Part shown: positions 11,766 through 39,138 of the stretch, one piece after another
Position numbering within the stretch: the first letter of the stretch is position 1
Layout: the number at the start of each line of letters is the position of its first letter
Assembly: GCA_964539235.1 (NCBI GenBank)
Contig: CAZIIK010000045.1
Coordinates: forward strand, 1 to 45,934
From: an uncultured Gammaproteobacteria bacterium
GTDB taxonomy: Bacteria; Pseudomonadota; Gammaproteobacteria; Francisellales; CACEW01
Direction: 5' to 3'
Length of the DNA stretch: 45,934 nucleotides
Notes under the pieces: model-generated
What the model was told of the DNA's origin: nothing
The model's database searches: none
What the model saw: the letters and a program-made list of their open reading frames with translations, nothing else
Program-made: the position numbers and the translations under genes

Positions 11766-14057
11766 CTAACTTCCCTCATCAACCATGTTAGATAGACTGC
11801 GGAAAATATACTTCTTCAACAATGCCTCAAAGTCTTTTTGTAACACTGGCTTCGTTAAATAATCATTCATTCCTGCATCGATACTTTGGCGTTCATAGTT
11901 TTGAAACACATGCGCAGTCAATGCAATAATGGGAACAGGATGTGCCAAGTCAGACTCTTTCTCCCGCAAGGCACGCGCAATATCGAAACCACTCATGTCG
12001 CCTAAACCAATATCAACGAAAATAATGTGGTACTCACTTTCAGCATAGGCCGTTAAAGCCTCTTGTCCTGAGGAAACCACATCCACTGTACAGCCAAAAC
12101 CTTCCAACATAGCTGCCGAGACTTGCTGAGAAGCAAGGTCATTCTCAACCAACAAAACTCTAACCTCATGCATGGCCTTAATTCGACGTTGCCTAGAAGC
12201 CAATAACCACGCATCCCAAGAATCTTTTAATTGCATCGCAAACTGTGTATTAGAAAGCGGTCGGCGAAACAGTGCAAAGAAACCATACTTTTTTAGCAAC
12301 TTAACGTTTAATTGGTCACCCGCATGACACAGCAAAATGAATAATTTATTGGGCACATATATCCGTTGTGCTAAAGCGCAGGCGCTGTCCGTATCTTTTA
12401 AATCAACCAGCACAACTTGCTCCGGTTGCCGGCCAATCGCTTCTGCATCTAGCTGTTCAAGATTTTGCGTCATCAAATTCAATTCAACTGGCGCATTCTG
12501 TGTGAGTTCAGATGCCACAACTGCATCATCGCTCAACCAAAGCACACGCAGTCGAGAGCTTGCCAGTGCCAGCATGGCTTCCTGCACATTTTCTTCCGGA
12601 ACACCGGCTAAAAAAGTCACTGTAAGGGTAGAGCCTTCACCTTCAACACTGTCAACGGATACAGTCCCACCCAAACGATCAACCATATTTTTCACAATAC
12701 TTAGACCTAATCCCAGGCCTTCAAACTGCCCCAGGTAAACTGGGTCTAAGCGGGTAAAGCGCTCAAAAATGTAAGCTTTCTTATCTTTGGGGATTCCAAA
12801 ACCTGTGTCCTTAACAACAATCACCACCTGCTTATCACGAGATGTACCAATGGTTTCGAAACGCACCTGAATATCAATGCGACCAGATTCTGTGAATTTT
12901 ACTGCATTGCCCACCAAATTACCGAGAATACGACGTAAAGCACCAATAGATGCCATGACTTCATGTGGTCCATCAGTTGGATAATCAACATTCAATGTGA
13001 CATTCTTTTGCTCACACTGAAAGGTCATCATATGCGCTACGTCATAGACGATTTGGCGAATATCACACAACTCATGCTCGACAATACATTGACCTGATTC
13101 AATTTTCATAAAGCTCATAATATCTTCGACCAAACTCAACAGTGCTTGCCCCGAACGGTGCACCGCATCCATAAATGCTTCCTGCTCTGGGTAATGATCT
13201 CGCTGCATGAGAATTTATGTTGCACCAATCATAGAATTCAACGGAGTGCGCAAATCATGGCTCATACTAGCAATAAAATCTGATTTCACACGGTTGGCCT
13301 CTTCAGCCCGGTCTTTAGCTTCACGCAACTCTTCTTCCAAATTCTTTAAACGCGTGATATCAACAGAATTTCCTACGATACCCATGATCTTGCCCTTGGC
13401 ATCACGTAGCGGCATCTTGACTGCCATAAATGTACAAAAAGAACCATCCGCCAATTCAACCGGTTCTTCAATGGTCATGGCCTTACCTTCTGCCATCACT
13501 CTTTGATCGTGCTCACGAAATAAAGGAGTCTCATCTAAACCATGTAGCTCAGGATCTGTTTTACCCACGATAGCAGCTGGCGAAGGCAAACCAATAATAT
13601 CTGCCATGTACTGATTACAGCCTAAATACACGCCATTCAAATCTTTCCAATAAATGCTTCCAGGCGTACACTCAACAACACCGACTAGCACACTATCCAT
13701 ATTCTGCACCGCTCGGACAGCTTCTGGCTGTTCTAATCGACCAACAAATAAAACTTGATCATTTTCGACGACATGCGGCGGCTGCCAAATAATACAAGTA
13801 TCATGCAACTCAATTTGCTGTCTAAACACAGCGTTCAACTGTCCTGACTGGTAGCGTTGCCAAAGATCCACCACGTTGAGTGCTTTAGACATGTCACTCA
13901 TCGCCATGCCTAAGACAACTGGTACGCCCCACTCCGAAAACTGCTGCTGACAAGAGGCCGAAACCGCGGATAGTTTTCCCTCTAAATCACACAACAAAAC
14001 CCAATCCTGTGTGACTGATAACCAGATTTCTAAGGCGGAACGTTGAACGCTTTCCAT
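11766..14057 (-). pseudogene. hybrid sensor histidine kinase (2x PAS - HisKA - HATPase - receiver) interrupted by one in-frame TAA at 13215..13217
   Basis: ORF 13215..14057 ends ...[25 protein letters not shown]. Two codons later, in the same frame, ORF 11766..13208 continues IL-MQRDHYPEQEAF...GNLVGNAVKFT...DTGFGIP...GLGLGLSIV, then a receiver (IIFVDIGLGDMSG...LTKP). The stop lies inside the HisKA dimerisation helix. Confidence 0.85.
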
Positions 14058-14177
14058 AAGCTGCCCCCAAACTACAAAAATTTCAGAAGACCATCAGCAC
14101 ACACGTGTGCAAATGCAAAAACTCGCTCAATATACCGAATTATCGGCAATGGGTATATCCCAGGCACTCTAAAAAAA

Positions 14178-15827
14178 TCACATCCGAACCACTCGCTCCA
14201 TACGCTCGACAATACCTGCAGGTTTATGGGTAATCCAAATAACCGTTTTCCCTTGTGAGCGCTGAAAAATTTCATCGATTATGGTTTGTGCTGTCGCCAC
14301 ATCAAGCCCCTCGGTTGGTTCATCCAACAACCAAATGGGTCCATCATGCAGAAAAACGCGCGCTAATGCCAAACGACGCAACTGCCCACCCGAAAGCCCA
14401 ACACCGTGCTCACCCAACCAGGCCTCCAACCCATCTGGCAGAGCCGCAACAACCGTGTCTAAACCAACAGCTGCAAGCACGCGCCACAGTTCCTCGTGAC
14501 TAGCATCCGGCAATGCTACAGATAAATTTTCACGGATCGTACGATTAAAGATATGTGCCGATTGTTCATGCGCGTAAAACAGCGCACGTAAAGATCGACG
14601 ATCAAATTTCACCAACGGTACACCACCCACACATAAACGACCGTGTTGAGGTAATACGAACCGTGTCAACAATTGAATTAAACTTGATTTTCCGACGCCT
14701 GTGGGCCCTAAAATTGCAACCCGTTAACCCGAACGCAAGGTCAAATTAAAATTTTGTAGAACCGGTGTCTGCATATGATAAGCAAAATCAATTTGCTCAA
14801 ATGTGATACTAAAATCTTGTGGTTGCTGAGCTGTCTGCTCAGGATACAGAATTTCAACGGCATGATGTTTAATTTCTGAAAGACGCTGCGTTGCCGATAA
14901 CATTTGCCCCAAATACTGAAAGGCAACCGGCAAAACTTGCACCGCCTCATAAGCACCTAATACTGCCAAAGCCACCAATGCCAACATGGCCCCATTTAAC
15001 TGACCCGCGTGTACCATTGTCACCCCAAAGTAAAGCTCCACACTGACACTTAAGCCTGAAAACAATACTACACCTGCCTGCAAAGCTCCTTTAATCCACG
15101 CCATCTTCAGCTGTGCTGCAATCAACTGATCTGCATGACATGCAAAAGCACAACGTTGACGCGCCACACCCGAAAACATCAGTAATTCAGCCATACGCTG
15201 TATGGTCTCTATTAATTGGACATGCAAGGCCCGCGTTACCGTAATTAACTGAATACTGCGTTTTTTCCCCCAATACAATGCCCATAAGGGTAGTACCACA
15301 ATGGCAACCAACATCAGCAACAAAATGGCATTCGCGACCGGTGCAACATAGCCATGCAAAAACAGCCACAGCAAGAGCGCAACAACTAATGCCAACACCC
15401 ATGGCAACAGCACACGGATATACAAACCATCTAAAGTATTCACGTCTGTCACCATCCGATTCAAGAAATCTGTACGGCGCTCATGCGCCACAAAATTCGG
15501 CGCAACCGGCGTAATCCAATCAAAACACCACACTCGAATCTGCGTCAGAAAAAGAAAAGTTGTATCATGATTAACCACACGCTCACCATAACGTGCGGCA
15601 ATGCGTAGCAGTGCAAAGAAACGCACACCAACGCTGGGTAAGAAGTAATTGAACGAGGTTGCTGTAGCAATAGACAAACCGGCAAAAGCTGCCGCAGAAA
15701 TAAACCAACCCGACAGGGCCAACAAACTGACACCGGCAACTAATGTCAGCAGGCCTAATATCGCACCCGCCAGCGAACGCCAACGCATTTTCATCAACAA
15801 CAGTAGGAATTTCCCAAGCTCAAACAT
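14178..15827 (-). pseudogene. cydC: cysteine/glutathione ABC exporter CydC interrupted by one in-frame TAA at 14724..14726
   Basis: The TMD ORF (14724..15842) ends ...QNFNLTLRSG-TAA. The same frame continues RVAILGPTGVGKSSLIQLLTRF (Walker A) into ORF 14178..14672 (LSGGQLRRLALARV, WLLDEPTEGLD). Start taken at ATG 15827, overlapping the cydD stop (ATGTTTGA). Confidence 0.85.
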
Positions 15828-17589
15828 ATTGCCCAGCCTCACTTAATAAAGACTGAAAAACACCTGTAGATTGGCACAAGTCCTGATAAAGACCAATTTG
15901 CACAATTTTTCCAGCTTCCAACACAATGATCTGATCAAATTCACTGAGCAACTGCAATTGGTGCGTCAGCATAATCACGGTTTTATCGCGCCCTAATCCC
16001 ATCAAGGCTGACATAATATGATGCGTATGGGCCACGCCCAAGTGAGCCGTTGGTTCATCCAACAATACAATTGGCGCTGGTTTTAAATAAGCACGCGCCA
16101 AAGCCACTCGCTGCAATTTGCCGCCAGAAAGCCCTGTATTGCCTGAGGCAATCTGCGTATCCAACCCCGCCGATAAACCGGCAACACATTGCGCAACACC
16201 TGCTTTTTCTAATGCCGCATACAAACCTTCATCTGTCGCATCAGGCGCAGCTAAACGGAGGTTCTCTGCAATACTGCCGTGAAAAAAACCAGGGTTCTGC
16301 CCCAGCCATGTCACCTGTTCACGCCACTCGGTTAAATTGCAAGCCGATAGCGTCTGATTATCTATCTTCACAGAGCCTGCCGTTGGCAATAAAAAACCCG
16401 CCAAAACATTGAGCAATGTTGTTTTGCCTGCCCCACTGGCACCTACAATCGCGACACGCATGCCTGCGGTAATTGTCCATTCAATATTATGCAACGCTAA
16501 ATCCTGGCGATTAGGATACTGATAGCAAAGTTTCTGTAACTCAATATGTTGAAATACTTGAGGCTCAGCCGTAGTTGGTCGTGCCTGAGCCGAGACAATT
16601 GGATCAACAAGCGCCTGATGCAAAATGGGCAGAATTTCTTCAGCAGCCGCAACTGCTTCTGCACGTGCATGGTAATGCGTCCCTAATTCACGCAGTGGCA
16701 AATAAAATTCGGGGGCCAGCAGCAAAATGAACAAACCTGTCAATAAAGTCAGATGATGACCAGAAAAACCAAAATGGATATACCCCAAAAAACTTAGGCC
16801 CAGATAAGTTGCTAATAATGCAATCGAGACAGAGGCAAATAATTCCAGAACCCCAGATGATAAAAATGCAACTTTCAGCACAGACATAGTGGTCTGGCGG
16901 TAAGCATCTGAAACCTGAGAAACTTGTGCACGCGTACGGCCAATTGCATCGAATAAATGCAATGTCGATAACCCCTGCAAAATATCGAGAAAATGCTGAC
17001 TCATGCGCCCCAAAGCCACAAAGTTTTTTCGATTGAGCGCCGCCGCTCCCATACCAATTAGGGCCATAAAGATAGGAGTCAACGGCGCTGTTACCAACAA
17101 AATAATGCCTGCGACCCAACTCATGGGAAACACAATGCACAAAATGGTCACCGGCACCAACAGCACTAAGATCATCTGAGGTAAGTACTGCGCAAAAAAT
17201 GCTTGCAGCGCTTCAACTTCTTCCAGCAAGTGATGGCTTAAGCGTGGTGCATCGCCCAAAGTGCGCAAATGGGAAGGACCTAATTGATGAAGTCTATCCC
17301 ATAACTGCAGACGCACTCTATGCCGAATTGCAGCGCCTGCACGAAACGATAACCACTCACGTAAAATGCTACAAACAGCTCGCACACCGATAGGTGCGAA
17401 AAAGCACACAAAATATATCGACAAGTCGGCGACTGTTCGATGGTGAATAAAAGCGGCATCGACAACAAAAGCCAATACACCCGCCTGTAAGATAACCATC
17501 AAATTTGCAACACAGGCAACCAACACAGTGGCAATTAACCACCCCTTGGCATAGTTCGACTGCTGCATAAGCCATTTTGATGCTTTCAT
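15820..17589 (-). CDS. cydD: cysteine/glutathione ABC exporter CydD
   Basis: Fused TMD-NBD protein with GASGAGKTT (Walker A), LSGGKLQRVALARA and VLLDEPTAHL. Start taken at ATG 17589 (MKASKWLMQQ...), giving 589 aa. First gene of the cydDC pair. Confidence 0.85.
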   Translation of the reverse strand: MKASKWLMQQSNYAKGWLIATVLVACVANLMVILQAGVLAFVVDAAFIHHRTVADLSIYFVCFFAPIGVRAVCSILREWLSFRAGAAIRHRVRLQLWDRLHQLGPSHLRTLGDAPRLSHHLLEEVEALQAFFAQYLPQMILVLLVPVTILCIVFPMSWVAGIILLVTAPLTPIFMALIGMGAAALNRKNFVALGRMSQHFLDILQGLSTLHLFDAIGRTRAQVSQVSDAYRQTTMSVLKVAFLSSGVLELFASVSIALLATYLGLSFLGYIHFGFSGHHLTLLTGLFILLLAPEFYLPLRELGTHYHARAEAVAAAEEILPILHQALVDPIVSAQARPTTAEPQVFQHIELQKLCYQYPNRQDLALHNIEWTITAGMRVAIVGASGAGKTTLLNVLAGFLLPTAGSVKIDNQTLSACNLTEWREQVTWLGQNPGFFHGSIAENLRLAAPDATDEGLYAALEKAGVAQCVAGLSAGLDTQIASGNTGLSGGKLQRVALARAYLKPAPIVLLDEPTAHLGVAHTHHIMSALMGLGRDKTVIMLTHQLQLLSEFDQIIVLEAGKIVQIGLYQDLCQSTGVFQSLLSEAGQYV

Positions 17590-17678
17590 ATAATTACCTG
17601 AATACGCACAGAAGTCTCTATCAGAAACAAAAAAGCCCGCACCTAAAGGCACAGGCTTTATCGCTGGACAAGGTCAGA

Positions 17679-19364
17679 TTACGCTTTACCGTCGTCAGCC
17701 ACTTTATCCATTTTCTCTTTAATCAAATCACCAATCGTTGTGGAAGAAAGTGCTTCTGCTTGCTGCTCACGATATTGCTTAGCTGCTTCGCGTTCTTCAC
17801 CTTCTGAAATCGCACGGATCGACAAGTTAGCTTGATTCTTTTTACGATCAAAGCCAGTAATCATCACTTCAACTTCGTCACCGGCCTTGAAGTGTTGACG
17901 AGCATCTTCCACGCGCTCCTGGCTAATATCGGACGCACGCAAGTAACCTCGTGTATCTTCATCCAGCTCAAAGTGAACACCTGCTTCTTCAACTTCGGAT
18001 ACTTTAGCTTTGACCACGACATTACGTTTTTCTGAGTACTTCGCCACAGGATCATCCGCTAGTTGCTTAATACCCAGAGAAATACGACCACGTTCTACGT
18101 CAATCGCCAATACTAATGCTTCGACTTCATCGCCTTTGTTGTAATCGCGCACGGCTTCTTCACCGGGTTTCGACCAGGACAAATCAGACAGGTGAATCAA
18201 ACCGTCGATACCGCCTGCAACCCCCAGGAATACACCAAAGTCTGTGATGGATTTAATCTGACCAGATACTTTATCACCCACTTTATATTGGCTGGAGAAT
18301 GACTCCCATGGGTTCTCGATGCATTGTTTTAGACCCAAGGAAATACGACGACGCTCTTCATCAATATCGAGCACTATCACATCAACCTCTTGGTCTAGCT
18401 GAACCACTTTATGTGGGTTTACGTTCTTGTTAGTCCAATCCATTTCAGAAACGTGTACCAGACCTTCAATACCGTTCTCAATTTCAACAAAGCAACCGTA
18501 ATCTGCAATGTTGGTCACCTTACCGTGAACACGCTTACCTTCTGGATAACGTTGAATGACATCCATCCACGGATCACCTTCCAACTGTTTCAGACCCAGC
18601 GATACACGCTTACGTTCTTTTTCGAACTTCAGCACACGGACCTTAATTTCATCGCCAACGGCCATCATTTCACTTGGATGATGAATACGTTTCCATGCCA
18701 TATCGGTGATATGCAACAAGCCATCGATACCCCCTAAATCTACAAAGGCACCATAATCGGTTAGGTTTTTCACCACACCTTGGATTTCATCGCCTTCCTG
18801 CAGGCTTTCTAACAATGCTTCACGTTCTGCGCTGCTTTCTTGCTCAATAACCGCACGACGAGAAACAACAACATTATTGCGTTTGCTATCAATTTTGATC
18901 AGCTTCAGATCAATCGGTGCTTCTTCTAAGAAGGTCGTATCTTTTAATGGGCGCACATCAACCAAGGAACCCGGCAAGAATGCACGAATACCATTTAAAT
19001 CAACCGTAAAACCACCTTTCACTTTACCGGTAATCATACCTTTGATTGTTGCACCAGTTTCATTGGCTTCTTCAAGTTCACGCCACATTTGTGCACGTTT
19101 CGCTTTCTCTCGTGACAAGCGGGTTTCACCAAAACTGTCTTCAACCGTGTCAAGTACAACCTCAACCGTATCACCTACGGCAATCTTGAATTCACCATTT
19201 TCTAGAAACTGCTCAACGGGAATTACCGCTTCAGATTTCAAACCTGCGTCTACCAGCACATGCCCGTTGTCTATCTTCAATACAACGCCTTGGACTAGGT
19301 AACCAGAACGCATTTCAACGCCTGCCAAACTCTCTTCAAAAAGTTCTGCGAAACTTTCACTCAT
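17679..19364 (-). CDS. rpsA: 30S ribosomal protein S1
   Basis: Start at ATG 19364 ([13 protein letters not shown]...), 561 aa with six S1 repeats. Typical cmk-rpsA arrangement. Confidence 0.95.
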
Positions 19365-19453
19365 AATATTAATACCTTTGACCGAATGGTCTTTGCTAAT
19401 GTTGGCTTCGAAAAAAACCAACTGAATTGTTTAAAGTTACATTCGCGAGATTG

Positions 19454-20158
19454 CTAAACAGGACGTGCAACCTCACCCCAAATATCTACCGCTTTACGAT
19501 AAATCCACTGAACGACTTCTGTTACGTCCATCTCTGTAGTGTCCAACATCAATGCGTCTTCAGCCGGCTTTAATGGCGCTGCAGCTCGACTCATATCGCG
19601 TTGATCACGCACAATGATATCTCGCAAAAGGTGCGACATGTTAACACCGATACCCTGTGCAAGCAACTGCCGATGGCGACGCACAGCACGCACCTCAGGG
19701 GATGCCGTCATATAAATTTTCAACGGCGCATGCGGAAAAACCACTGTCCCCATATCCCGACCATCGGCCACCAAACCAATATCGGTTAGAAAATTACGCT
19801 GGCGTTGCAATAAAGCCGCACGCACGGCTGGGTAAGCAGAAATCGTTGAGGCAGTACTACTACAAGCTTCTGTACGCAACTCTAATGTGACAGGCTGACC
19901 TTCTAAAAACACATCTGGATCCGCATGGGAGGCTTCCATTTTAAATTCAACATCCAACGTACTGGCGACTTCAACCAATGCACAAATATCTTCTAAATCT
20001 ATTTTCTTCTGCATCGCAGCATAGGCCGTTAAGCGATATAGGGCACCACTATCAAGGAAATCCCACCCCAACTGATATGCCAATTCACGACTCGCTGTAC
20101 CTTTACCTGCACCACTGGGTCCATCAATGGTAATGAGTTTTAATGATGTTTTATCCAT
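19454..20158 (-). CDS. cmk: cytidylate kinase
   Basis: MDKTSLKLITIDGPSGAGKGTASRELAYQLGW...LDSGALYR. The track ORF is extended upstream into serC; I chose ATG 20158 (alternative 20164). Confidence 0.9.
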   Translation of the reverse strand: MDKTSLKLITIDGPSGAGKGTASRELAYQLGWDFLDSGALYRLTAYAAMQKKIDLEDICALVEVASTLDVEFKMEASHADPDVFLEGQPVTLELRTEACSSTASTISAYPAVRAALLQRQRNFLTDIGLVADGRDMGTVVFPHAPLKIYMTASPEVRAVRRHRQLLAQGIGVNMSHLLRDIIVRDQRDMSRAAAPLKPAEDALMLDTTEMDVTEVVQWIYRKAVDIWGEVARPV

Positions 20159-21227
20159 GACCATATTGCCTCTCAAATTCTTGCATAAACGCAACCAGCG
20201 CCTGCACACCTGACAATGGCATTGCATTGTATAGGCTGGCGCGAATGCCGCCCATACTACGGTGACCACCTAGATTCAGCAAGCCTGCCTCAGCAGCTTT
20301 GCCTAAAAACACGTGTTCCAACTCGAGCGTGGGCAAACGAAATACTACATTCATTTTGGAGCGCCAAGCCACATCCACTGTATTATGGTAGAACGCACTA
20401 TTATCAATGCAGGCGTACAGGTACTGGGCTTTGGCCATATTGTGTTGTGCCATTGCTGCTAAGCCGCCTTGCTGCTTTAGCCATTGCAAAACCAATCCCA
20501 CTACATACCAAGCAAAAGTTGGTGGCGTGTTATACAAAGAACCTTTGTCAGCATGATTCTGGTAAACATAAGTCGCCGGCGTACCAGGCAATGCAGATTG
20601 AGCAAGATCTTTGCGCACGATCACCACAGTTACACCTGCAGGTCCCAAATTCTTCTGAGCGCCCGCGTAGATAACACCAAAGTCCTCCGTTTTAAGGGGC
20701 TCAGACAGCAAAACTGACGAAAAGTCACCCACCAGTGGCACGCCAGAAATATACGGATATTCCGGCAAACAAACCCCATCGATCGTCTCATTAGGTGTGC
20801 AATGCAGATAATCCATAGCAGGCAGCTCGAGTTTCCCCGCATTCAATGCTGACAATTGATCTACCGGTAACACATAAACAGCGCCATATCGCTTGGCCTC
20901 AGCAATCGCCTTTTGTGACCAATAACCACTATCGACATACAGTGACTGTTTTTGGGCACCATATAGATTCAATGGCACCATGGAAAACTGCGCAGTCGCA
21001 CCGCCTTGGAGAAATAAAATATGATAGTCATCTGACAAACCCAACAAATCAGCCAGATCTTTTTTAGACTCTTCTACCACTTCCATAAAAGCATCACTGC
21101 GGTGACTCACAGATAAAATCGATAAGCCAGAACCTTGCCAATCTACTAAAGCTTGTTGAGCTTGCGACAATACTGAATCGGGCAACACCGCCGGACCGGC
21201 TGAAAAGTTATACACTGGACCTTGCAT
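20151..21227 (-). CDS. serC: phosphoserine aminotransferase
   Basis: 358-aa [19 protein letters not shown]...; the GAQKNLGPAG PLP-lysine motif is present. Its ATG shares one base with the gyrA TGA. Confidence 0.93.
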   Translation of the reverse strand: MQGPVYNFSAGPAVLPDSVLSQAQQALVDWQGSGLSILSVSHRSDAFMEVVEESKKDLADLLGLSDDYHILFLQGGATAQFSMVPLNLYGAQKQSLYVDSGYWSQKAIAEAKRYGAVYVLPVDQLSALNAGKLELPAMDYLHCTPNETIDGVCLPEYPYISGVPLVGDFSSVLLSEPLKTEDFGVIYAGAQKNLGPAGVTVVIVRKDLAQSALPGTPATYVYQNHADKGSLYNTPPTFAWYVVGLVLQWLKQQGGLAAMAQHNMAKAQYLYACIDNSAFYHNTVDVAWRSKMNVVFRLPTLELEHVFLGKAAEAGLLNLGGHRSMGGIRASLYNAMPLSGVQALVAFMQEFERQYGHG

Positions 21228-23827
21228 CAGACAGTTCCGCTTGGCGCGTCATCAGTATCGTCTGCCGCCTCGTCATCCAAGTCCACTTCCTCAATACGTT
21301 GCAAAGCGACAACATGTTCGTCATCTGACACTCGGATTAAACGAACCCCCTGGGTATTACGGCCAATCACAGAAATCTCATCAACTTTGGTGCGTACTAA
21401 GGTACCACCATCGGTCACCAACATGATTTCGTCAGTTGGCTGAACTAACTTCGCCCCAATCACTTTACCATTACGCTCAGTCGTTTGAATCGAGGTAACA
21501 CCTTGCGCACCGCGATTAACTTCACGGTACTCGGCGACCACTGTACGTTTACCATAACCATTTTCCGTGACGGTCAAAATATCACCATCCGAGCCATCAC
21601 CTAAGGTACTGATTAGTGAAATAACACGCTGACCATCTTGCAAGCGAATACCACGCACACCCCGTGCAACACGACCCATTTCGCGCACATGCGCCTCATT
21701 AAAGCGCAATGCCTTTCCAGCATCGCTAAACAACATGATATGTTGCTGACCATCCGTCAGTAACGCACCAACCAGCGCGTCATCATCATCTAAATTCACG
21801 GCCCAAATACCATTAGCCCGTGGACGAGAGAAAGCCTCCAAACTGGTTTTCTTCACCACACCTTTTTGTGTAGCCATAAATACCGCATGTTGGTCATCAA
21901 ACTCACGCACCGGTAGCATACTGGTAATGTATTCACCTTCTTCCAGCGGCAACAAATTCACAATGGGACGCCCACGCGAAGCACGTGATGCCTGGGGAAA
22001 CTCATACACTTTTTTCCAATAGACTTTACCTCGGCTGGAAAAACACAGCATGGTGGCATGCGTACTGGAAATCACGACTTTTTCGATAAAATCTTCTTCT
22101 TTCAAACTGGTTGCTGACTTGCCTCGACCACCACGGCGCTGAGCTTGGTAAGTACTCAAAGGTTGTGACTTCACATAGCCTGTGCTCGATAACGTCACCA
22201 CCATGTCTTCTTCTGCAATCAGATCTTCAACCGTCATATCATGCTGACTGGCGGTAATTTCTGTACGCCGTTCATCGCCAAAAGTTTCTTTAATATCTGC
22301 TAACTCTTCTCGAATCACCGCCATCAAACGTTGCACATCCGACAGGATATCGATTAATTCCGCAATCTTATCCAGTAGCGCTTTGAATTCACTGAATATT
22401 TTATCCTGCTCCAGCCCCGTTAACCGATGCAAACGTAATTCCAAAATGGCATCTACCTGCGCGATCGACAGACGGTAACCTGCATCAACCATACCATAGT
22501 CGGCAGACAGCCCTTCCGGTCGACTATTAGAAGCGTCGATACGTGACAACAATTCTTGCACTGATCCTGGTTTCCATAAGCGCTCCATAATCCGTTCACG
22601 TGCTTGTTTTGGATTTTGCGAGGACTTAATAATGGCAATCATTTCGTCGATATTATTGAGCGCAACCCCCAGTCCTTCTAATAAATGCGCCCGCTCACGC
22701 GCCTTACGCAGATCATAAATGGTCCGACGCGTCACCACTTCTTGGCGATGTCGAATGAAAGCCTGCAGTAATTGTTTCAGGTTTAATACTTTTGGCTGGC
22801 CATCTTCTAGTGCCACCATGTTAATCCCGAATACTGTCTGCATTTGGGTATAGGCATACAGCTTATTCAGCAACACATCGGCCATTTCACCGCGTCGCAC
22901 TTCGATCACAATCCGCATACCGTCTTTATCAGATTCGTCACGCAATTCGGAAATGCCTTCAACGCGTTTTTCTTTCACCAATTCTGCAATTTTTTCGATC
23001 AAACGGGCTTTATTCACCTGATAAGGCAATTCCGTCACGATGATGCGCTCTTTACCACCACGTTCATCGGTTTCAATTTCAGTACGTGCCCGCACATAAA
23101 TACGCCCACGCCCAGTACGATAGGCTTGGATGATGCCTGCACGACCACTAATGATCCCATGCGTTGGAAAATCTGGCCCTGGAATATGCGCCATCAAGTC
23201 ATCGATATCTAAAGTAGGCTCATCAATCAATGCCAAACAACCATTCACCACTTCGGTCAAATTATGCGGTGGTATATTAGTTGCCATCCCGACCGCAATA
23301 CCCGATGAACCATTGACCAGCAAATTCGGGATCCGCGTAGGCAAAACGGCGGGTATTTGTTCGGTTTCATCATAGTTTGGTACGAAATCGACTGTTTCTT
23401 TATCCAGATCACTTAACAGACTGTGCGCGAATTTTGACATCCGTACTTCGGTATACCGCATGGCTGCTGGCGAGTCGCCATCAACCGAACCAAAGTTCCC
23501 TTGACCATCAACCAACAGATAGCGCATGGAAAATGGCTGCGCCATCCGTACAATCGTATCGTAAACCGCGGTATCACCATGTGGGTGATACTTACCGATG
23601 ACATCACCGACAATCCGCGCGGACTTTTTATAGGGTTTATTCCAATCGTTACCGAGCTCACGCATGGCAAATAAGGTACGCCGATGCACAGGTTTCAAGC
23701 CATCCCTCACATCAGGCAATGCACGGCCAACGATCACGCTCATCGCATAATCGAGGTAGGATTGTTTCAATTCATCTTCAATGGTGACAGGGGAAAAAGT
23801 CGTAGTGGGTGCTGACATAGAATCCAA
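21227..23827 (-). CDS. gyrA: DNA gyrase subunit A
   Basis: 866-aa ORF with DGLKPVHRR, the [21 protein letters not shown], and C-terminal beta-pinwheel repeats with an acidic tail. Confidence 0.97.
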
Positions 23828-30749: not shown

Positions 30750-32075
30750 ATGAAAAAACAAACAGTCCTACTTGCGATTTCCTTGGCCATGCCACTATGC
30801 ACATTTGCCTTTCCAACACCGGCTAGACCCTTCACGCAAACACCGAAAACACCCTCATCAGATCAAGCACAAAATACAACTGCTGAAGCAACCGAAAACT
30901 GTGATACCAGCCATACACTAACGGGCAACTGGGGCGGCTGGCGTTGTCGCCTACAAGCAGAAGGTGTCAACATCACTGGTGATTACACTTCCTACACCAT
31001 GTTTAACGTATCAGGCGGCAAATCCCGTGGCGGTGCCTATGCAGATTCCTGGGGGCTTAATTTTGATTTTGATTTGGCCAAACTATTAGGACTGAACAAC
31101 ACACATTTCTACGTCAGCCTCGTCGATCGTAATGGTGCTGACCTGTCGGTCGACCATGTCGGCAAACAATATTCCCTGAAGAAGGTCTATGGCAACGAAA
31201 CCCTCACCGTCAATAATGTTTATCTCAAACATACCTTCGGCGGCCCTTACGATTTCATCAAAATTGGCCGGGTAAATGCAGCCGATGACTTCCAGCAAGC
31301 TGATATCTATTACGATTTCGTCAGCAATGCGATTGAAGGCAACCCAATTGGCGTATTTTTTAGCATCACCAATTTCTCAGCCTACCCAAATGCACAATGG
31401 GGCGCCTTACTGTCAGCAGAACCAGCAAATCACATAGTCGGAAAAGTCGCAGTTTACAACACCAACAATAATTCCAACGAAACCAAATACCATGGGCTCA
31501 ACTGGTCATTCCGCAACGATAACGGCGCCTTGATTATGACCGAATGGGATTTTATTAACGGCAATGACAATGCAGGCCTACCGGCCAAATACGGGATCGG
31601 CGCAATGTACGTCACTGGCAACGACCAAATTGACTACAACTCCGGTGAAAATGTCTGGGGCGACTATGGTTTCTACTACCAAGCATACCAAATGCTGTAT
31701 CGACCCAATGGTCCAGGCACCAAACAAGGACTCAGTGCTTTTCTCGCCATGCAATTTTTCCCTAACGATCGTAACGAAATGCCGTTTTTTGGTGACGCCG
31801 GCTTCACCTACAGCGGCATCATCCCACAACGACCTAACGACTTTTTAGGTATTGCTTATGCGTATGGTCGTTACAGTCCCGACCTCGCCAAGCAACAGAA
31901 TGCAGCCGGACTTCCTGCGCAAAACTTTGAAGGCATGCCAGAAGTTACCTACCGCGTGCAATGCAACCCCTGGCTGTATGTGCAACCTGATTTACAGTAC
32001 ATCATCAAGCCTAAAGGCACGGGTGAGATTGCAGACGCACTGGCCATCGGTGCTCAAATCGGCATTACATTTTGA
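30750..32075 (+). CDS. oprB: carbohydrate-selective porin, OprB family
   Basis: 441 aa. Signal peptide MKKQTVLLAISLAMPLCTFA; LTGNWGGWR motif near the N-terminus; aromatic-rich beta-barrel ending in ...GITF. Confidence 0.8.
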   Translation: MKKQTVLLAISLAMPLCTFAFPTPARPFTQTPKTPSSDQAQNTTAEATENCDTSHTLTGNWGGWRCRLQAEGVNITGDYTSYTMFNVSGGKSRGGAYADSWGLNFDFDLAKLLGLNNTHFYVSLVDRNGADLSVDHVGKQYSLKKVYGNETLTVNNVYLKHTFGGPYDFIKIGRVNAADDFQQADIYYDFVSNAIEGNPIGVFFSITNFSAYPNAQWGALLSAEPANHIVGKVAVYNTNNNSNETKYHGLNWSFRNDNGALIMTEWDFINGNDNAGLPAKYGIGAMYVTGNDQIDYNSGENVWGDYGFYYQAYQMLYRPNGPGTKQGLSAFLAMQFFPNDRNEMPFFGDAGFTYSGIIPQRPNDFLGIAYAYGRYSPDLAKQQNAAGLPAQNFEGMPEVTYRVQCNPWLYVQPDLQYIIKPKGTGEIADALAIGAQIGITF

Positions 32076-32183: not shown

Positions 32184-32209
32184 ATGACCTTGAGGGTATT
32201 TCCTGAGGA
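32184..32209. repeat. solo copy of a 26-bp repeat (left arm of the palindromic element at 32515)
   Basis: ATGACCTTGAGGGTATTTCCTGAGGA is identical to 32515..32540. I found no inverted partner in the following 300 bp. Confidence 0.7.
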
Positions 32210-32514: not shown

Positions 32515-32618
32515 ATGACCTTGAGGGTATTTCCTGAGGAGACTCTGCGCCAGGACGGCGCAGCGTCAGTTGCCACGGAGGGCTTTACAACGGTCCGAAG
32601 GGAATACCTCAAGGTCAT
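32515..32618. mobile_element. 104-bp MITE/REP-like palindromic element
   Basis: Left arm ATGACCTTGAGGGTATTTCC (32515..32534) pairs with right arm GGAATACCTCAAGGTCAT (32601..32618). Internal 7-bp hairpin CTGCGCC/GGCGCAG (32545..32563). Flanked by a 23-bp direct repeat CAG(T/C)CGATATAAAAAT(C/T)CTCAAC at 32474..32496 and 32651..32673. Confidence 0.55.
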
Positions 32619-32725
32619 GCGAGCACTGCAAGACTCTTGCATCAACTCATCAGCCGATATAAAAATTCTCAACAGAGCCCCAATCCGCTAAACTATGCCG
32701 CCACAAAACAATCGACCCACAACAC

Positions 32726-34912
32726 ATGCACGCACCCCAAATCCTCGACGGCCTCAATGAAAAACAAACAGAAGCCGTTAGCGCACCCTTACAAAACCTA
32801 CTGATTCTCGCCGGTGCTGGCAGTGGAAAAACCCGCGTATTAATCCATCGCCTCGCCTGGTTGTTCACCCAAGCACACATCTCACCACAACAAATCCTAG
32901 CCGTCACATTCACCAACAAAGCCGCCAAAGAAATGCGCCATCGCATGCAAGACTACTTCCATATCGACACACGCTCGATGTGGGTCGGCACATTTCATGG
33001 CCTTGCACATAAATTTCTACGCCTACATGCCGCCCAAGCACACCTACAACCTGATTTCCAAGTCATCGACAGTGACGACCAATACCGCCTAGTGCGCCGC
33101 ATTATTAAACGCCTGGGCCTGGATGAAAAACACTGGCCTGCCCGACCCGCACAACACTTTATTAACAGCCAAAAAGACCAAGGCAAACGCGCTGCACAAG
33201 TCGAAGCCGATACCCTAGAACATAAAACCTTAGTCAAAGTGTACGCCGCTTACGAAACACACTGCCAAGACAACCAACTGGTCGATTTCTGTGAACTCCT
33301 GTTGCGCTGCTACGAAACGCTAGAAAATGATGCAGCGCTACGCTATGAGTATCAACAACGTTTCCGCTACATCCTGGTCGACGAATTCCAAGACACCAAC
33401 AGCATTCAATATCAATGGCTACGACTATTGATCACCGAACATAACCACATTATGGCCGTTGGTGATGATGATCAATCGATTTATGGTTGGCGCGGCGCTC
33501 AAATTGAAAACATCCATCGCTTCGAACATGACTTAGCGCCTGTCGCCGTCATTCGCCTGGAGCAAAATTATCGTTCCAGCCAAACAATTCTTAAAGCCGC
33601 AAATGCATTAATTGCACATAACCAAACCCGCCTGGGCAAAGACCTTTGGACTGACATCGAAGCAGGCCAGCCTATTTACCTCTACCAAGCATTCAATGAG
33701 CTAGAAGAAGCGAAATTTATCGTCAGCCAAATCCAACAGAAATTACTCGATGGACACGCCTGTCGCGACATGGCCATTTTATACCGCTCCAATGCACAAT
33801 CCCGCCTATTAGAAGAAGCACTGATTCATGCAAACGTACCGTATCGCATCTACGGTGGCCTTAAATTCTTCGAACGTGCTGAAATCAAAACCGCTTTAGC
33901 CTACTTCCGACTGATTCAGCATAAACACGACAATGATGCCTTGGAACGCGTGATCAACACACCCACTCGCGGCATTGGTGAACGCACCTTGGAACACCTG
34001 CGCCAATATGCCCGCGAACACGGCCGTACGCTATGGCATGCCTTAATCGACACCATTAATCAAAAAACCCTGGCGGCCCGCGCCTGCACAGCATTAAGCC
34101 GCTTTGCCGAATTAATCGCAGGTTTAGAAGAAGCCCTGCAGAACCAAGCCTTGCACACACAAATTCAAACCGTGATCGAACACACTGAACTCATTGCGCA
34201 CTACCGCCAAGAGCCGGGCGAAAAAGGACAAGCACGTGTCGAAAACTTAGCTGAACTCGTGACAGCTGCGAAACAATTCTCCGCCGACCCCGGCGAAGAA
34301 CTCCCAGTTTTATCCGCCTTTTTAGCGCATGCCGCATTGGAAGCCGGTGAAACTCAAGCAGACGAAACGGCTGACAGCGTACAATTGATGACCTTACATG
34401 CAGCCAAGGGATTGGAATTCCCCGTTGTATTTATCTGCGGTTTGGAAGAACAGCTATTTCCATCACCTCAATCGATTCAAAGACCGATCAAACTCGAAGA
34501 AGAACGCCGCTTATGTTATGTCGGCATGACGCGAGCCATGCAATGCCTATATCTCACCTATGCCGAATACCGCCGTGTTTTTGGTGACAACCAACTGCAC
34601 TTACCTTCACGCTTTATTCGCGAGATCCCCGCGGAATTCTGCCAAGAGATTCGCCTCAAAAATGAAGTGCGCCGCCCTCATCTGTGTCGGCAACCACAAC
34701 GCACTCAAGCAACCAACACCCTGAGCAACACCCGCACACACAGCAGCGGAACAAACTGGTCAGTTGGCCAGGCCGTCCGCCACGAAAAATTTGGCACTGG
34801 TGTTGTACTGAATTATGAAAGCGGTGGTCGTCAGGCACGCGTACAAGTGCGCTTTGCCAATGGTGAAAACAAATGGTTAATCGCGGCTTATGCACGACTG
34901 CATGCGGAGTAA
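32726..34912 (+). CDS. uvrD: DNA helicase II (UvrD/Rep family)
   Basis: 728 aa: AGAGSGKTRVL, TFTNKAAKEM, VDEFQDTN, QNYRS, LMTLHAAKGLEFP and YVGMTRA helicase motifs. Confidence 0.9.
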   Translation: MHAPQILDGLNEKQTEAVSAPLQNLLILAGAGSGKTRVLIHRLAWLFTQAHISPQQILAVTFTNKAAKEMRHRMQDYFHIDTRSMWVGTFHGLAHKFLRLHAAQAHLQPDFQVIDSDDQYRLVRRIIKRLGLDEKHWPARPAQHFINSQKDQGKRAAQVEADTLEHKTLVKVYAAYETHCQDNQLVDFCELLLRCYETLENDAALRYEYQQRFRYILVDEFQDTNSIQYQWLRLLITEHNHIMAVGDDDQSIYGWRGAQIENIHRFEHDLAPVAVIRLEQNYRSSQTILKAANALIAHNQTRLGKDLWTDIEAGQPIYLYQAFNELEEAKFIVSQIQQKLLDGHACRDMAILYRSNAQSRLLEEALIHANVPYRIYGGLKFFERAEIKTALAYFRLIQHKHDNDALERVINTPTRGIGERTLEHLRQYAREHGRTLWHALIDTINQKTLAARACTALSRFAELIAGLEEALQNQALHTQIQTVIEHTELIAHYRQEPGEKGQARVENLAELVTAAKQFSADPGEELPVLSAFLAHAALEAGETQADETADSVQLMTLHAAKGLEFPVVFICGLEEQLFPSPQSIQRPIKLEEERRLCYVGMTRAMQCLYLTYAEYRRVFGDNQLHLPSRFIREIPAEFCQEIRLKNEVRRPHLCRQPQRTQATNTLSNTRTHSSGTNWSVGQAVRHEKFGTGVVLNYESGGRQARVQVRFANGENKWLIAAYARLHAE

Positions 34913-34914
34913 TC

Positions 34915-35898
34915 ATGCAAAACGGTTACACCCACCCCATTTCTATCGCACCGATGATGGACTATACCGACCGTCATTGTCGGTATTTTCTGCGGCAAAT
35001 CACAGAAAAAGCTTTGCTCTACACCGAAATGGTCACCACACAGGCGATCCTGCGCGGCCAGCGTGATTATTTATTACGCCACCATCCAGCTGAGCATCCC
35101 ATCGCCTTACAGCTGGGCGGATCCGATCCAACACAATTGGCAGCATGCTGCCGTATCGCAACGGACTATGGCTACGATGAAATCAACCTCAATGTTGGCT
35201 GCCCCTCTGACCGCGTACAATCTGGTCGCTTTGGCCTTTGCCTGATGAAAGACCCGCAACAAGTCGCCGAATGTCTGACAGACATGCAGGCTGCCACGTC
35301 ATGCCCAATCACTGTCAAAACCCGCTTAGGCGTCGACGAGCTCGATAGCGATACTTACCTACATAGTTTTATTGGCACATTGGCTAAAACGGGCTGCCAA
35401 ACCTTTATCATTCATGCCCGCAAAGGATGGTTAAAAGGCCTGAATCCAAAACAAAATCGTACCATTCCACCTTTGCAATACGAGCGGGTTTACCAACTCA
35501 AACAAGCCTTTCCAACCCTGAATATTATCCTCAATGGTGGTGTTGAAACCTTGGCAGATATGCAAACACATTTGGCACACGTCGATGGGGTGATGCTGGG
35601 CCGCGCAGCCTATCACAACCCTTACATCCTGGCAGCAGTTGACCCAACTTTTTATGCCGCTACTATGCCGATTCCAACACGACAGGATATTCTGCAGCGC
35701 CTCAACGCTTATGTAGAAACCGAGCTACAACAAGGCCAAAAACTGCATCATATTTCGCGTCATTTACATGGCTTATATTTTGCACAACCCCAGGCCAAAC
35801 AATGGCGCCGGCACTTAAACCAACTCAGCCAAACGGACCAACCACAACAGGCGTGGAAACAGTTGATAAAAAATCTGACATTTTTATTGATTTATTGA
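34915..35898 (+). CDS. dusA: tRNA-dihydrouridine synthase A
   Basis: Start at ATG 34915 (MQNGYTHPISIAPMMDYTDRHCRYFLR), 327 aa. The DusA-type N-terminus, NLNVGCP and HARK motifs are present. Confidence 0.9.
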   Translation: MQNGYTHPISIAPMMDYTDRHCRYFLRQITEKALLYTEMVTTQAILRGQRDYLLRHHPAEHPIALQLGGSDPTQLAACCRIATDYGYDEINLNVGCPSDRVQSGRFGLCLMKDPQQVAECLTDMQAATSCPITVKTRLGVDELDSDTYLHSFIGTLAKTGCQTFIIHARKGWLKGLNPKQNRTIPPLQYERVYQLKQAFPTLNIILNGGVETLADMQTHLAHVDGVMLGRAAYHNPYILAAVDPTFYAATMPIPTRQDILQRLNAYVETELQQGQKLHHISRHLHGLYFAQPQAKQWRRHLNQLSQTDQPQQAWKQLIKNLTFLLIY

Positions 35899-35948
35899 CA
35901 TAAAATAAATTATAATTCGATCATAATAACAACAATAAAGCCATAAAA

Positions 35949-36590
35949 TTGTTTGAATCTTGTCGTAATATCTGCACTATTCCAGCCGCTGTTTGGGGAG
36001 GCATTTCCTCTATTGCGGGATGGTCTGCCAAACAAACCGCTCGGGCTTGGGACCAAGTTGAAAGAGCGGGCTTCAAATTATGTTCATGCTTTTCCCTGGC
36101 AACGATTCAAGGCATGGCCTACTTCAACATTGCGACGGACGGTATCTATCTGGTGGCAAGTTTTTGGAAAAACATGCTCACAGCCTTCCCTGATGTCTAT
36201 GAAAATGGTGAAGCGGGTTACCAAACACCTGCCTGGCGTTGGTCTATTTTTGGCATGTCACTACTGGTGGCAATCTGGGGTCTGCTGGCTGAACGCTTTA
36301 GGCCTAAAAACATATCCAGAGAGATGGGAACAGAAAGCGACGCCGCCCAAGACACACGCGGGAATTACATTGGCCCTCTGAACGGCATTTATATGGTCTG
36401 GCACTGGTGGCGCAGCCTCTTTAGTGCGGCTAAAAATGGCCGACATGCGATTGTTAATCTAGTCAAAGCTGTTTTAGGCGTTCAGGGCTGGACAACGCTC
36501 GGCTTACACGCAGATGATGAAAGCACCATTGGTCAATGGGCATTGAGTGCGGCAACCCTTTATGTTGTCGCGACCTTTTCCGGCTCCTGA
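35949..36590 (+). CDS. hypothetical multi-pass membrane protein (probably the N-terminal part of a frameshifted gene)
   Basis: 213-codon ORF with a TTG start and no clear SD. Several hydrophobic helices (GIYLVASFW, WSIFGMSLLVAIWGLL, WALSAATLYVVATF). No family recognised. Ends TGA-TAG inside the next ORF. Confidence 0.5.
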   Translation: MFESCRNICTIPAAVWGGISSIAGWSAKQTARAWDQVERAGFKLCSCFSLATIQGMAYFNIATDGIYLVASFWKNMLTAFPDVYENGEAGYQTPAWRWSIFGMSLLVAIWGLLAERFRPKNISREMGTESDAAQDTRGNYIGPLNGIYMVWHWWRSLFSAAKNGRHAIVNLVKAVLGVQGWTTLGLHADDESTIGQWALSAATLYVVATFSGS

Positions 36591-37516
36591 TAGAAAAAAC
36601 CAACAAAAAAGAACAAGGAACATGCACCCTGATTCTTGGTGCTGGCGCCAGTGTATTAGACGGCCTACTGGATGGCCTATATATTCCGGGCAATATTGAA
36701 ATCTTTGTCTCGCTATTTGCATCGACTATGTTTGCCGCATCACCCTACGGACGCGCTGCTGCATTCCTGCCCATTATCGCACTGTCGCTTTTAGGCAAAG
36801 TCACTGAAAACATGTATGGCGGACGTGTCCCGCGATTTGGTCGCGCCTGGCATGTGGTCCGTGCATTGCTAAATGGCGCTAAAAACATGGTGCAAGCCTG
36901 CATGATGCTCACCGCCTTTTTTCTTGATAGAGATATGGACAATGTTGCGGATGATGCATTTAACACCTTAAAAATATTTGGTTACACCGCTTTAATCCTG
37001 GCAATGCTACGCGCATTAACATCGACCATCACTGCCTTCCACAGTTTACGCACAGTCAAAAATCGTGATGGTGTTGTCCCCGGGAATGGTTATCTACCGC
37101 CTGGTTCGGATCGCAGTTCCACTGGAAGTGGAGGTTCTGTAGATCATTTAGTAGCGGAAACTGTTACCATGGCATCCTCTAGCGAAGAAGAAGACTCTAG
37201 GGGTGGCAGCTTTGTTGACTCCACAGCAGCGCCTTTGCTGCCAGCAGGCCACAGAGATGGTTCAAATGGTACCTCTGATGCTGCTCATACCAGAAGGGCC
37301 GTGTTAGAGGCTGCTGCACCTGTTGGAGAAATGCCTAACGCTGTTGTGATTGATGTTGCACCAGCAGAAGTAAGAAACACAGCTACAACTACTGCTGCCA
37401 CATCTCAATCAGACACTGAAACATGGGGCGAATGGGCGTCAGGTTGGTACACTTGGGCATCTGCAAAAGTATTTGGCGCATCCACTCCAGACACCCCGGC
37501 AACAAAAACGGGGTAA
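36536..37516 (+). CDS. hypothetical membrane protein with a disordered acidic/Ser-Thr and Trp-rich tail (probably the C-terminal part of the same gene, in the -1 frame)
   Basis: 326-codon ORF overlapping the previous one by 55 nt, with no SD before ATG 36536. Frame 2 is open from 36521. Has TM helices, then a low-complexity tail ...SSSEEEDSRGG...TETWGEWASGWYTWASAKVFG. Confidence 0.5.
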   Translation: MGIECGNPLCCRDLFRLLIEKTNKKEQGTCTLILGAGASVLDGLLDGLYIPGNIEIFVSLFASTMFAASPYGRAAAFLPIIALSLLGKVTENMYGGRVPRFGRAWHVVRALLNGAKNMVQACMMLTAFFLDRDMDNVADDAFNTLKIFGYTALILAMLRALTSTITAFHSLRTVKNRDGVVPGNGYLPPGSDRSSTGSGGSVDHLVAETVTMASSSEEEDSRGGSFVDSTAAPLLPAGHRDGSNGTSDAAHTRRAVLEAAAPVGEMPNAVVIDVAPAEVRNTATTTAATSQSDTETWGEWASGWYTWASAKVFGASTPDTPATKTG

Positions 37517-37623
37517 TATGCGACGGCTCGTGTGACAGGTGCGCCAGGCTCCACCGGAGATCCTTATGCCTGCCTATCACGCCTGGCTGCTGCCGGAGGG
37601 TAATCTATTCGCGCAAAGGTCTG

Positions 37624-37668
37624 CGCAAAAAAACCCACCGAATGCTATCACTAACATGCGGTGGGTTT
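37624..37668 (-). terminator. rho-independent terminator between convergent genes
   Basis: AAACCCACCG (37631..37640) pairs with CGGTGGGTTT (37659..37668). On the minus strand the hairpin is followed by T7, downstream of the stop at 37709. Confidence 0.65.
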
Positions 37669-37708
37669 GAGGAGAAAACAACGGTCTTATTTATGACCTA
37701 AGCCACAC

Positions 37709-38104
37709 TTAGATTAAAGACGTCAGTCCTTGTGACAAGCCCAAATCTTGCTTGGGCGGCAATACACCCGACAGCATAGCTTCATCTGCCGACTTTTGTT
37801 TTTGCTGCACCACAATCTGCACATCGGCAGCTTGATGATCACGTTTCACATACAAACGCATGGCTGTAATGGCTGCTTTAAAGGAACGCGTGGGCTCTTC
37901 TTCCAATTCACAAATACTTTGCAGCGCTTCCACCACATCATCTGCCGTCATGCTTTTATCATCCAAAATATCAATCAGCAGGGATTCATCTTCCAACAGC
38001 CAGTCGTCTGAATGAAATTCAACACATTGTTTACATTTATAAACCACACTGCCATTATAGGCCTGTAATTGTTCGGCATAATCAGCAACAGTTTGGTGCT
38101 TCAT
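37709..38104 (-). CDS. hypothetical acidic protein (131 aa)
   Basis: ATG 38104 sits 8 nt after a strong AAGGAG SD (MKHQTVADYAEQLQAYNGSVVYKCKQCVEFH...). One CxxC; Asp/Glu-rich; no family recognised. Confidence 0.65.
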   Translation of the reverse strand: MKHQTVADYAEQLQAYNGSVVYKCKQCVEFHSDDWLLEDESLLIDILDDKSMTADDVVEALQSICELEEEPTRSFKAAITAMRLYVKRDHQAADVQIVVQQKQKSADEAMLSGVLPPKQDLGLSQGLTSLI

Positions 38105-38135
38105 GGTTAGCACTCCTTATAGTAGGCGATAGGTT

Positions 38136-38369
38136 TTAGCCCCACCGGCTTTGCAATTTCTTATCTAAAATCACTTGCATCACGTAGTCTTCCATCTGGC
38201 GCTCTAAATCTCTTTCTAAAGAACGCGCTAAACGCAAAGCAATTTCGACTTGGATATGATGACCATTTTCCCCTGCACGTAATACAAGATCACGCACCAT
38301 TTCTTCCAGCAGAGAGAACTGCACAACAGGATCTTCATCATGAGTAGAAATACGGTATTGATCGGTCAT
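38136..38369 (-). CDS. Arc/MetJ-type ribbon-helix-helix DNA-binding protein
   Basis: 77 aa behind an AAGGAAG SD. VQFSLLEEMVRDLVLRAGENGHHIQVEIALRLARSLERD parallels the Arc repressor pattern FNLRWPREVLDLVRKVAEENGRSVNSEIYQRVMESF (beta-strand, helix, helix). Confidence 0.6.
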   Translation of the reverse strand: MTDQYRISTHDEDPVVQFSLLEEMVRDLVLRAGENGHHIQVEIALRLARSLERDLERQMEDYVMQVILDKKLQSRWG

Positions 38370-38404
38370 AGCAAACTTCCTTATATTAAAACTGTAACGA
38401 ATAG

Positions 38405-38419
38405 GTGGTTTTTAACCAC
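38405..38419. promoter_or_regulatory. perfect palindrome upstream of the RHH gene (candidate operator)
   Basis: GTGGTT-ttt-AACCAC, 36 to 50 nt upstream of ATG 38369. Confidence 0.3.
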
Positions 38420-38535
38420 GCTTATCTATGTCGCTATCAGACCATAAGGAAAAATTGAAAAAAATGATTTTTTTACCGGTTATCTGGCTGAAATTTAAAC
38501 GCCTGTAAATTCACATACGTTTCCTACAAGCAAAT

Positions 38536-39138
38536 TTACCAAACGACCTGAAACACTTGCCCAGTCTGCAAACCTTCAACACTCTTACTATAAGCCAGAT
38601 CAGCTTCAGCAGCTGGAACCGGTTTATAACCGCGAAAATAAGGCGCATATCCCGACATTGACTCAGCAATGACGGTTGGACTGACCACATTGATCCGTTG
38701 TTGATGCGGTAATTCTAGGGCTGCCGTGCGCGCAAAGCCTTACACAGCAACATTCACCATGCCAGCGCCACTGCCATAGCGAATTGGATCCATATTTAAT
38801 AGACCTGAGGTTAGGGTAAACACACCACCTGCTTGTATGCGTGACTGACCGAGCAACACCAAACTCACCTGGCCTATCAGTTTGTGATCCACACCGATGC
38901 GGTACTCTGCTTCGGTCATTTCGTCTAACGGCCCAAAATGTACTTTACCCGCACAACAGACCACAGCATCAAATTCCCCAACCGCATCGTATAAGGCAAC
39001 AATAGAATCCGAATCAGTCAAATCGACTTGAAAGTCACCTGACTGACTGCCCGCTGTCACAACATCATGGCGCGCACCCAACTCAGCAACTACCGCTTGG
39101 CCAATGGTACCGGTACCCCCAATCACAATAATTTTCAT
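38536..39138 (-). pseudogene. short (~200 aa) NAD(P)-binding short-chain dehydrogenase interrupted by one in-frame TAA at 38740..38742
   Basis: MKIIVIGGTGTIGQAV...GAGMVNVAV-TAA-GFARTAALELPHQQRINVVSPTVIAESM...QVFQVVW-TAA. My own translation of 38536..38739 continues in frame to a second stop at 38536..38538. Confidence 0.8.

Follow-up and report, generated by a model that had tools for sequence, protein, structure and literature searches.

Probable G>T nonsense mutations of glutamate codons in a hybrid histidine kinase gene, cydC, and a short-chain dehydrogenase gene of an uncultured gammaproteobacterium

The stretch of DNA considered here, referred to at its full length as the window, is a complete 45,934-base pair (bp) contig (CAZIIK010000045.1), present in NCBI, Logan, and ENA, from an uncultured gammaproteobacterium. 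It holds about 39 genes, rather than the roughly 50 given in a preliminary description made from the letters alone, at a coding density of 87%. Three genes on the minus strand are each split by one in-frame TAA. A hybrid histidine kinase gene (11766..14057) reads as 763 codons through a stop at 13215..13217; cydC (14178..15827) reads as 549 codons through a stop at 14724..14726; and the gene for a Lin1944-like short-chain dehydrogenase (SDR) of 200 amino acids (aa; 38536..39138) is interrupted at 38740..38742. The preliminary description had reported all three stops with their positions and contexts, and both the sequence and Pfam bear it out. Comparison with sister populations, an outgroup, and protein families leads us to propose that the three TAA codons are, quite probably, genuine G>T nonsense mutations of Glu codons (GAA or GAG) that inactivate the kinase, CydC, and the SDR. 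Each of the three genes has uninterrupted, colinear orthologues.

Public assemblies from several samples carry the same organism, with 99.5-100% identity to the window. The window and loci L001-L003, L006, and L010 come from SAMN08954292 (run SRR8816671), here called sample A; sample B is SAMN08954293 (L004, L005, L007, L008, L012, and L013), and sample C is run SRR8816673 (L009). A fourth assembly, ERZ27295652, provides short contigs (L017 and L018), equivalent to window positions 13520-14632 and 15185-15849. As an outgroup, we used a syntenic but more distant locus, L011, found on an unbinned Logan contig from SRR27482142, whose GyrA is 88% identical to that of the window. Among named organisms, Legionella species come closest, with GyrA about 70% identical; for the window GyrA (21227-23818), identity to the proteins of Legionella and Tatlockia is 69-72%. 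Among the GTDB representative genomes scanned with GyrA (L019-L098), none exceeded 73% identity, leaving no sister genome in that set, and a scan of GTDB representative genomes with the cydC fragment likewise found no relative. With GyrA at no more than 73% in the GTDB set and the only closer relative at 88%, the lineage therefore seems to be one without a close reference genome. The best named match of the SDR is a Legionellales metagenome-assembled genome. Judged by these protein identities, the organism appears to be an uncultured gammaproteobacterium with only a distant affinity to the Legionellaceae.

Read through its stop, the kinase gene encodes PAS_4, HisKA, HATPase_c, and Response_reg domains, as recognized by translation and Pfam. 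The TAA falls in helix 1 of HisKA, just after the H-box, in the context MIGAT*ILMQ, and parts PAS_4 and the start of HisKA from HATPase_c and Response_reg. In the outgroup, the orthologue is a single intact protein of 760 aa that aligns end to end at 64% identity; at the site of the stop it has GAG (Glu), reading MIGATEILMQRDHY. The truncated product of 280 aa is encoded in both SAMN08954292 and SAMN08954293, and a look-up with the kinase fragment found no third sample. Between samples A and B, the kinase gene differs by five nonsynonymous changes versus one synonymous change. In sample B, two of the changes, G379V and G449V, are Gly-to-Val replacements in ATP-binding motifs (the N-box and the G2-box).

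In cydC, the TAA stands nine codons before Walker A, in the context LRSG*RVAILGPTGVGKS, and separates ABC_membrane from ABC_tran in the Pfam assignment. The window gene is otherwise colinear with a 549-aa sister protein and with 120 homologues. The site is TAA in four of four sample A assemblies (the window, L001, L002, and L003) and GAA in two of two sample B assemblies (L004 and L005), where the protein reads LRSGERVAILGP and cydC is uninterrupted at 549 aa (P0125 and P0126; 2621-4270 of L004 and L005). The outgroup cydC is also intact, at 553 aa, and has GAG (Glu) at this position; among 117 homologues, the column holds Q in 42, E in 27, and R in 18. The contigs of the fourth assembly end about 90 bp before the site. 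On these alignments, the cydC stop appears to be an allele that segregates against GAA. The preliminary description had held that a sister genome with GAA would point to an artefact, and this rule proves too simple, given that the GAA of sample B behaves as a segregating polymorphism.

The stop is not the only damage to this transporter. The window cydC carries derived changes at conserved columns, R92L (G>T), A264E (C>A), and S418Y (C>A); S418Y is common to samples A and B, and the fourth assembly retains Ser. The two contigs of that assembly keep both R92 and S418 and bear changes of their own, and they thus show that the same study includes further strains of the organism. The nominally intact cydC of sample B has the invariant Walker A glycine altered (GVGKS>GIVKS; G379V, by G>T at window 14692), and one sample B assembly has a +1 T insertion in cydD (window 16390; L005 858-2628). 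From these further derived hits, constraint on cydC seems to have been relaxed before, and apart from, the stop. The cydDC transporter seems, as far as the alleles allow us to judge, to be decaying by different routes in the two populations. No cydAB genes lie near cydDC.

The SDR stop, in the context VNVAV*GFARTAALEL, parts the Rossmann portion of the Pfam match from the remainder. The read-through protein matches PDB entry 3d7l with an E value of 1.4e-52 over residues 1-198. The PDB homologues alone, with T, E, and V at the position of the stop, left the ancestral residue unsettled, and a larger alignment was required. It comprises 119 homologues of 198-244 aa (nearly all 198-210 aa), with D in 55, E in 53, and N in 11 at the stop column. 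Of the codons for these residues, GAA alone can become TAA by a single change, which makes it the parsimonious ancestor. The earlier proposal that Glu was ancestral at all three sites is upheld for the kinase and cydC; for the SDR, Glu is plausible, although the family has no one normal residue at this column, contrary to what had been supposed. An identical truncated product of 132 aa is encoded in three runs, from SAMN08954292/SRR8816671, SAMN08954293, and SRR8816673. The SDR also departs from four near-invariant residues of its family (M88I, S106V, S124G, and A180D), and D180 is derived in sample A alone, via C>A.

Because the truncated products of the kinase and the SDR recur across independent samples, and neither site is variable in any aligned locus, we take these two stops to be real and, it appears, fixed in the sampled populations.

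Two other genes are broken in one population or another, and about 10% of the genes in the window are disrupted. An open reading frame (ORF) of unknown function (35949..37516, plus strand), which encodes 522 aa in its intact form, has no Pfam match. Its window allele has lost 1 bp from a T run at about 36575-36579 (T5>T4 relative to both L007 and L009), which splits it into 213 and 326 aa; the possible -1 frameshift that had been suspected near 36521..36590 is thus real. The ORF is intact in sample C (L009, 2845-4413). In sample B (L007, 8333-9901), it has TCG>TAG (C>A) at codon 255, and so it has been broken independently, at different places, in samples A and B. The gene for an OprB-family porin (oprB, 30750-32075, plus strand) carries GAG>TAG in sample B at window 32025 (L007, 13823-15100), a G>T change on the plus strand that removes the last 16 residues (425 versus 441 aa).

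What the nonsense mutations share is their type. All five found across the sampled populations, namely, the three window stops, the oprB stop, and the stop in the 522-aa ORF, are G:C>T:A changes; under a flat spectrum, the probability of this is 1.2e-3 (nonsense probabilities here and below were computed from the codon usage of the window). The same class stands out among substitutions in general. We collected single-nucleotide variants (SNVs) from all same-species loci aligned to the window and polarized the nonsynonymous differences in eleven shared genes by reading the derived state against the outgroup residue. The 137 SNVs comprise 80 G<>T/C<>A changes and 57 transitions (42%), with no A<>T and no C<>G. 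Polarized and read on the coding strand, 32 changes divide into 12 G>T, 7 C>A, 2 T>G, 2 A>C, and 9 transitions, so that G:C>T:A makes up 19 of 32 and outnumbers A:T>C:G by 19 to 4. No extra strand bias of G>T is seen, as the 12:7 split fits the G:C ratio (G excess) of the minus strand. Some derived G:C>T:A alleles (the kinase stop, the SDR stop, cydC S418Y, rpsA 18665, and lpoB 24065) are present in two samples, which argues that they are real.

One could suppose that three independent nonsense mutations arose under an ordinary bacterial spectrum and arrived at the same codon change by chance. GAA>TAA is, to be sure, already the commonest single nonsense path in the window, at 10.9% of all paths. 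Yet under a flat spectrum three of three would take it with a probability of only 1.3e-3, which falls further once a transition bias is assumed, in agreement with the earlier remark that three identical changes are not expected from random decay. The two additional nonsense mutations in sister populations are likewise G:C>T:A, and the SNV spectrum is independently enriched for this class, making coincidence highly improbable in our estimate. If the spectrum is restricted to G:C>T:A, the probability of three GAA>TAA changes rises to 0.07, with GAA accounting for 42% of such nonsense paths. The placement of all three stops on the minus strand is unremarkable, given that this strand carries 64% of the coding bases (0.64 cubed comes to about 0.26).

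Several observations weigh against reading the stops and the spectrum as the work of a G:C>T:A-rich mutation supply, and they are best considered together with the explanations that they would favor. For a spectrum of purely biological origin, the total lack of A<>T and C<>G beside 57 transitions is unusual. Within one sample, assemblies differ from each other at 0.05-0.25% of sites, and G>T or C>A accounts for most of these differences; in L005, for instance, about 25 private differences fall in 14 kb, and 15 belong to these two types. The cydC TAA is observed only in assemblies of a single sample. All of this could be expected if 8-oxoguanine (8-oxoG) damage to the library, or Illumina dye cross-talk between G and T and between A and C, had entered a low-coverage consensus, a systematic artefact of the kind that the preliminary description had offered as one option. 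Oxidation of the library, or Illumina miscalls between A and C and between G and T, could account for some of the singletons.

As a general account, an artefact of this kind does not fit well. Such errors are known for low allele frequencies and for failing to reproduce in independent samples. Here, the kinase stop is found in two BioSamples, and the SDR stop in the same two and in a third run, so that two of the three truncated products recur in independent material, and several further derived G:C>T:A alleles are common to different samples. Contigs of 20-46 kb from four pipelines are concordant on all three stops. For this reason, a consensus-level error in sample A at the cydC site seems unlikely as well. 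The polarized changes run 19:4 toward T:A, for which cross-talk would predict symmetry. Nor are the differences evenly spread. Fixed differences between samples A and B (A/B differences) are absent from 8.3 kb of conserved sequence (rpsA, tgt, trpC, o445, dus, dprA, and an acyltransferase gene), where about 14 would be expected; the kinase gene, cydC, cydD, serC, and an AsmA-like gene have 2.6-9.5 per kb. That conserved genes are free of differences and others dense with them points to selection acting on real variants rather than to uniform error. Irreproducibility across samples and an even spread are what an artefact should produce; we found neither, and we regard it as an improbable source of the stops. 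The disagreement within samples may instead reflect strain diversity, a view supported by the mosaic sharing of some of the alleles between samples.

The A/B differences also raise the question of whether clustered events, either recombination with diverged strains or multibase errors of a translesion polymerase, are the main source of the variation and of the G>T excess. Neighboring pairs no more than 50 bp apart number 21 versus 5.3 expected, and tandem doublets 3 versus 0.11 expected (P of at most 2e-4 in a clustering test). Allele sharing is mosaic, with L002, for example, carrying B alleles at 7854-5, 9984, and 24065. The clustering and the doublets suggest that a further process, for example recombination or the action of an error-prone polymerase, may contribute, and they hint at a second component of error-prone synthesis. 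As the main source, clustered events seem unlikely to us: the three stops are isolated single-base changes, and tracts acquired by recombination should abound in synonymous changes and transitions, but most of the clustered changes are nonsynonymous G<>T. Uneven constraint among genes would also yield clustering. Across window positions 4178-45934, clustered or tandem sites can be seen, for example, at 7854-7855, 12711-12712, 16036-16037, and 20143-20144, and the AsmA-like gene has seven A/B changes inside 170 bp (4382-4549).

A different possibility is that the stops are tolerated, with TAA read through, suppressed, or recoded so that full-length proteins are still made; this too had been suggested at the outset. 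Frame and motifs are kept downstream of each stop, as tolerated nonsense would require. However, TAA is the main genuine terminator in the window, where it ends 22 of 38 genes (fusA, rpsG, and rpsL among them), and we rejected stop-codon recoding on that ground. Scanned for tRNA genes and for Rfam elements, the window yielded none of either. At the cydC site, TAA and GAA are alternative alleles. In addition, the interrupted genes bear further radical changes at conserved positions, as described above for cydC (R92L, A264E, and S418Y), the four positions of the SDR, and the sample B kinase. Across the four broken genes, fixed A/B differences stand at 15 nonsynonymous to 2 synonymous, small numbers that, together with the derived changes at near-invariant residues, indicate relaxed constraint. 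We consider it scarcely credible that these proteins are still made at full length.

Even in intact genes, fixed A/B differences number 30 nonsynonymous versus 15 synonymous, an omega of about 0.67 (0.6-0.7) that is not significantly below neutral. Purifying selection thus appears to be weak in the sampled populations.

We return, then, to nonsense mutation under a biased supply. G:C>T:A is the classic outcome of unrepaired 8-oxoguanine and is normally prevented by the MutM/MutY "GO" system, and Glu-to-stop and Gly-to-Val are typical outcomes of such a GO or oxidative signature. We imagine that a mutation supply rich in G:C>T:A would strike the abundant GAA codons and convert them to TAA; as no other codon that a single G>T change turns into a stop is as common as GAA, this would be the expected nonsense route. 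The supply itself would most likely come from oxidized guanine left unrepaired, through weak or lost MutM/MutY-type repair or in a strongly oxidative niche, and drift or relaxed selection would allow the knockouts to persist or become fixed. The role of 8-oxoG and of repair loss is what we infer from the spectrum. Further points count against this account: mutM, mutY, and mutT are not within the window, which bears on the enzymatic cause, and GC content at third codon positions is higher in the window (43%) than in the outgroup (34%), so that no long-term drift toward AT is visible. A G:C>T:A signature in a genome starting to pseudogenize was the first of the explanations given in the preliminary description, and the ancestral Glu codons of the kinase and cydC, the uniform class of the nonsense mutations, and the SNV and polarized counts all speak for it.

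One can envision a more specific scenario, in which the organism is a natural hypermutator defective in GO repair (mutM/mutY) and a member of a deep-branching lineage at the first stage of genome erosion, with knockout alleles that continue to segregate from one sample to another and with independent losses of the same genes. Taken as a whole, we hold this scenario only tentatively and think it rather doubtful.

Comparison with known systems places the findings in context. In the reductive evolution of Sodalis in lice (PMC11137140) and of "Streptomyces philanthi" (PMC8092579), nonsense pseudogenes arise, as here, by single stops or 1-bp indels in genes whose orthologues are intact. The share of genes hit, the independent inactivation between populations, and the high ratio of nonsynonymous to synonymous change are also alike. 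In contrast to those cases, no insertion sequence elements are seen in the window, and coding density is still high. Sodalis and "Streptomyces philanthi" are host restricted, whereas the present organism is placed only by its distant affinity to Legionella. The usual mix of lesions in host-restricted erosion is dominated by frameshifts, and here nonsense arises solely via G:C>T:A.

Oxidative attack and mutM/mutY defects have been held responsible for the surplus of G:C>T:A seen in host-associated bacteria (PMC8302680). The Bordetella hinzii population in a patient described there, with its GO-deficiency or oxidative signature, resembles the present case in the G:C>T:A excess among both polarized substitutions and nonsense mutations. 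It differs in that transitions still make up a large part of the SNVs here, and differences are clustered with tandem doublets; moreover, the B. hinzii data come from isolates with measured mutation rates, whereas ours come from natural metagenomic populations and give relative spectra only. Library and Illumina artefacts involve the same substitution classes and the same kind of disagreement between assemblies of one sample, but in the present data two of the three stops, like several derived alleles, reappear in different samples and constitute the assembly consensus. Bacteria are known to reassign UGA to Trp or Gly, and phages to recode UAG or UGA. Stop-codon reassignment would similarly place in-frame stops at conserved sense positions; here, however, TAA is the main terminator, only three genes are affected, and the cydC site is polymorphic with GAA.

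Some features of the locus stand apart from these questions. Over most of the contig, the GC skew of the plus strand lies between -0.1 and -0.23, irrespective of gene orientation, except for two 2-kb blocks with a skew near zero (about -0.01) at 6001-8000 and 36001-38000. Third codon positions of minus-strand genes have 28% G and 15% C, a very strong asymmetry of the replication type. The outgroup has, between lpoB and gyrA, a 550-aa ORF (L011, 3125-4777) with faint similarity to RHS repeats that the window is without. An overlapping pair of small genes, DUF4160 and DUF2442 (44694-45226, minus strand), adjoins topA.

Both nonsense pseudogenization and a G:C>T:A-biased spectrum are well known, and this is a fresh instance of them in the course of ordinary genome erosion; what is known of the genetic code and of translation is unaltered. 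For annotation, it means that the kinase gene, cydC, and the SDR gene should be marked as pseudogenes and not as the pairs of ORFs that they form in public gene calls. In terms of method, a single 46-kb contig together with public sister assemblies sufficed to obtain a polarized spectrum and to tell lesions from artefacts. If the bias should prove to be genome-wide and mutM or mutY to be missing, this organism would provide a natural system for studying gene loss driven by mutation at a stage when the alleles remain polymorphic.

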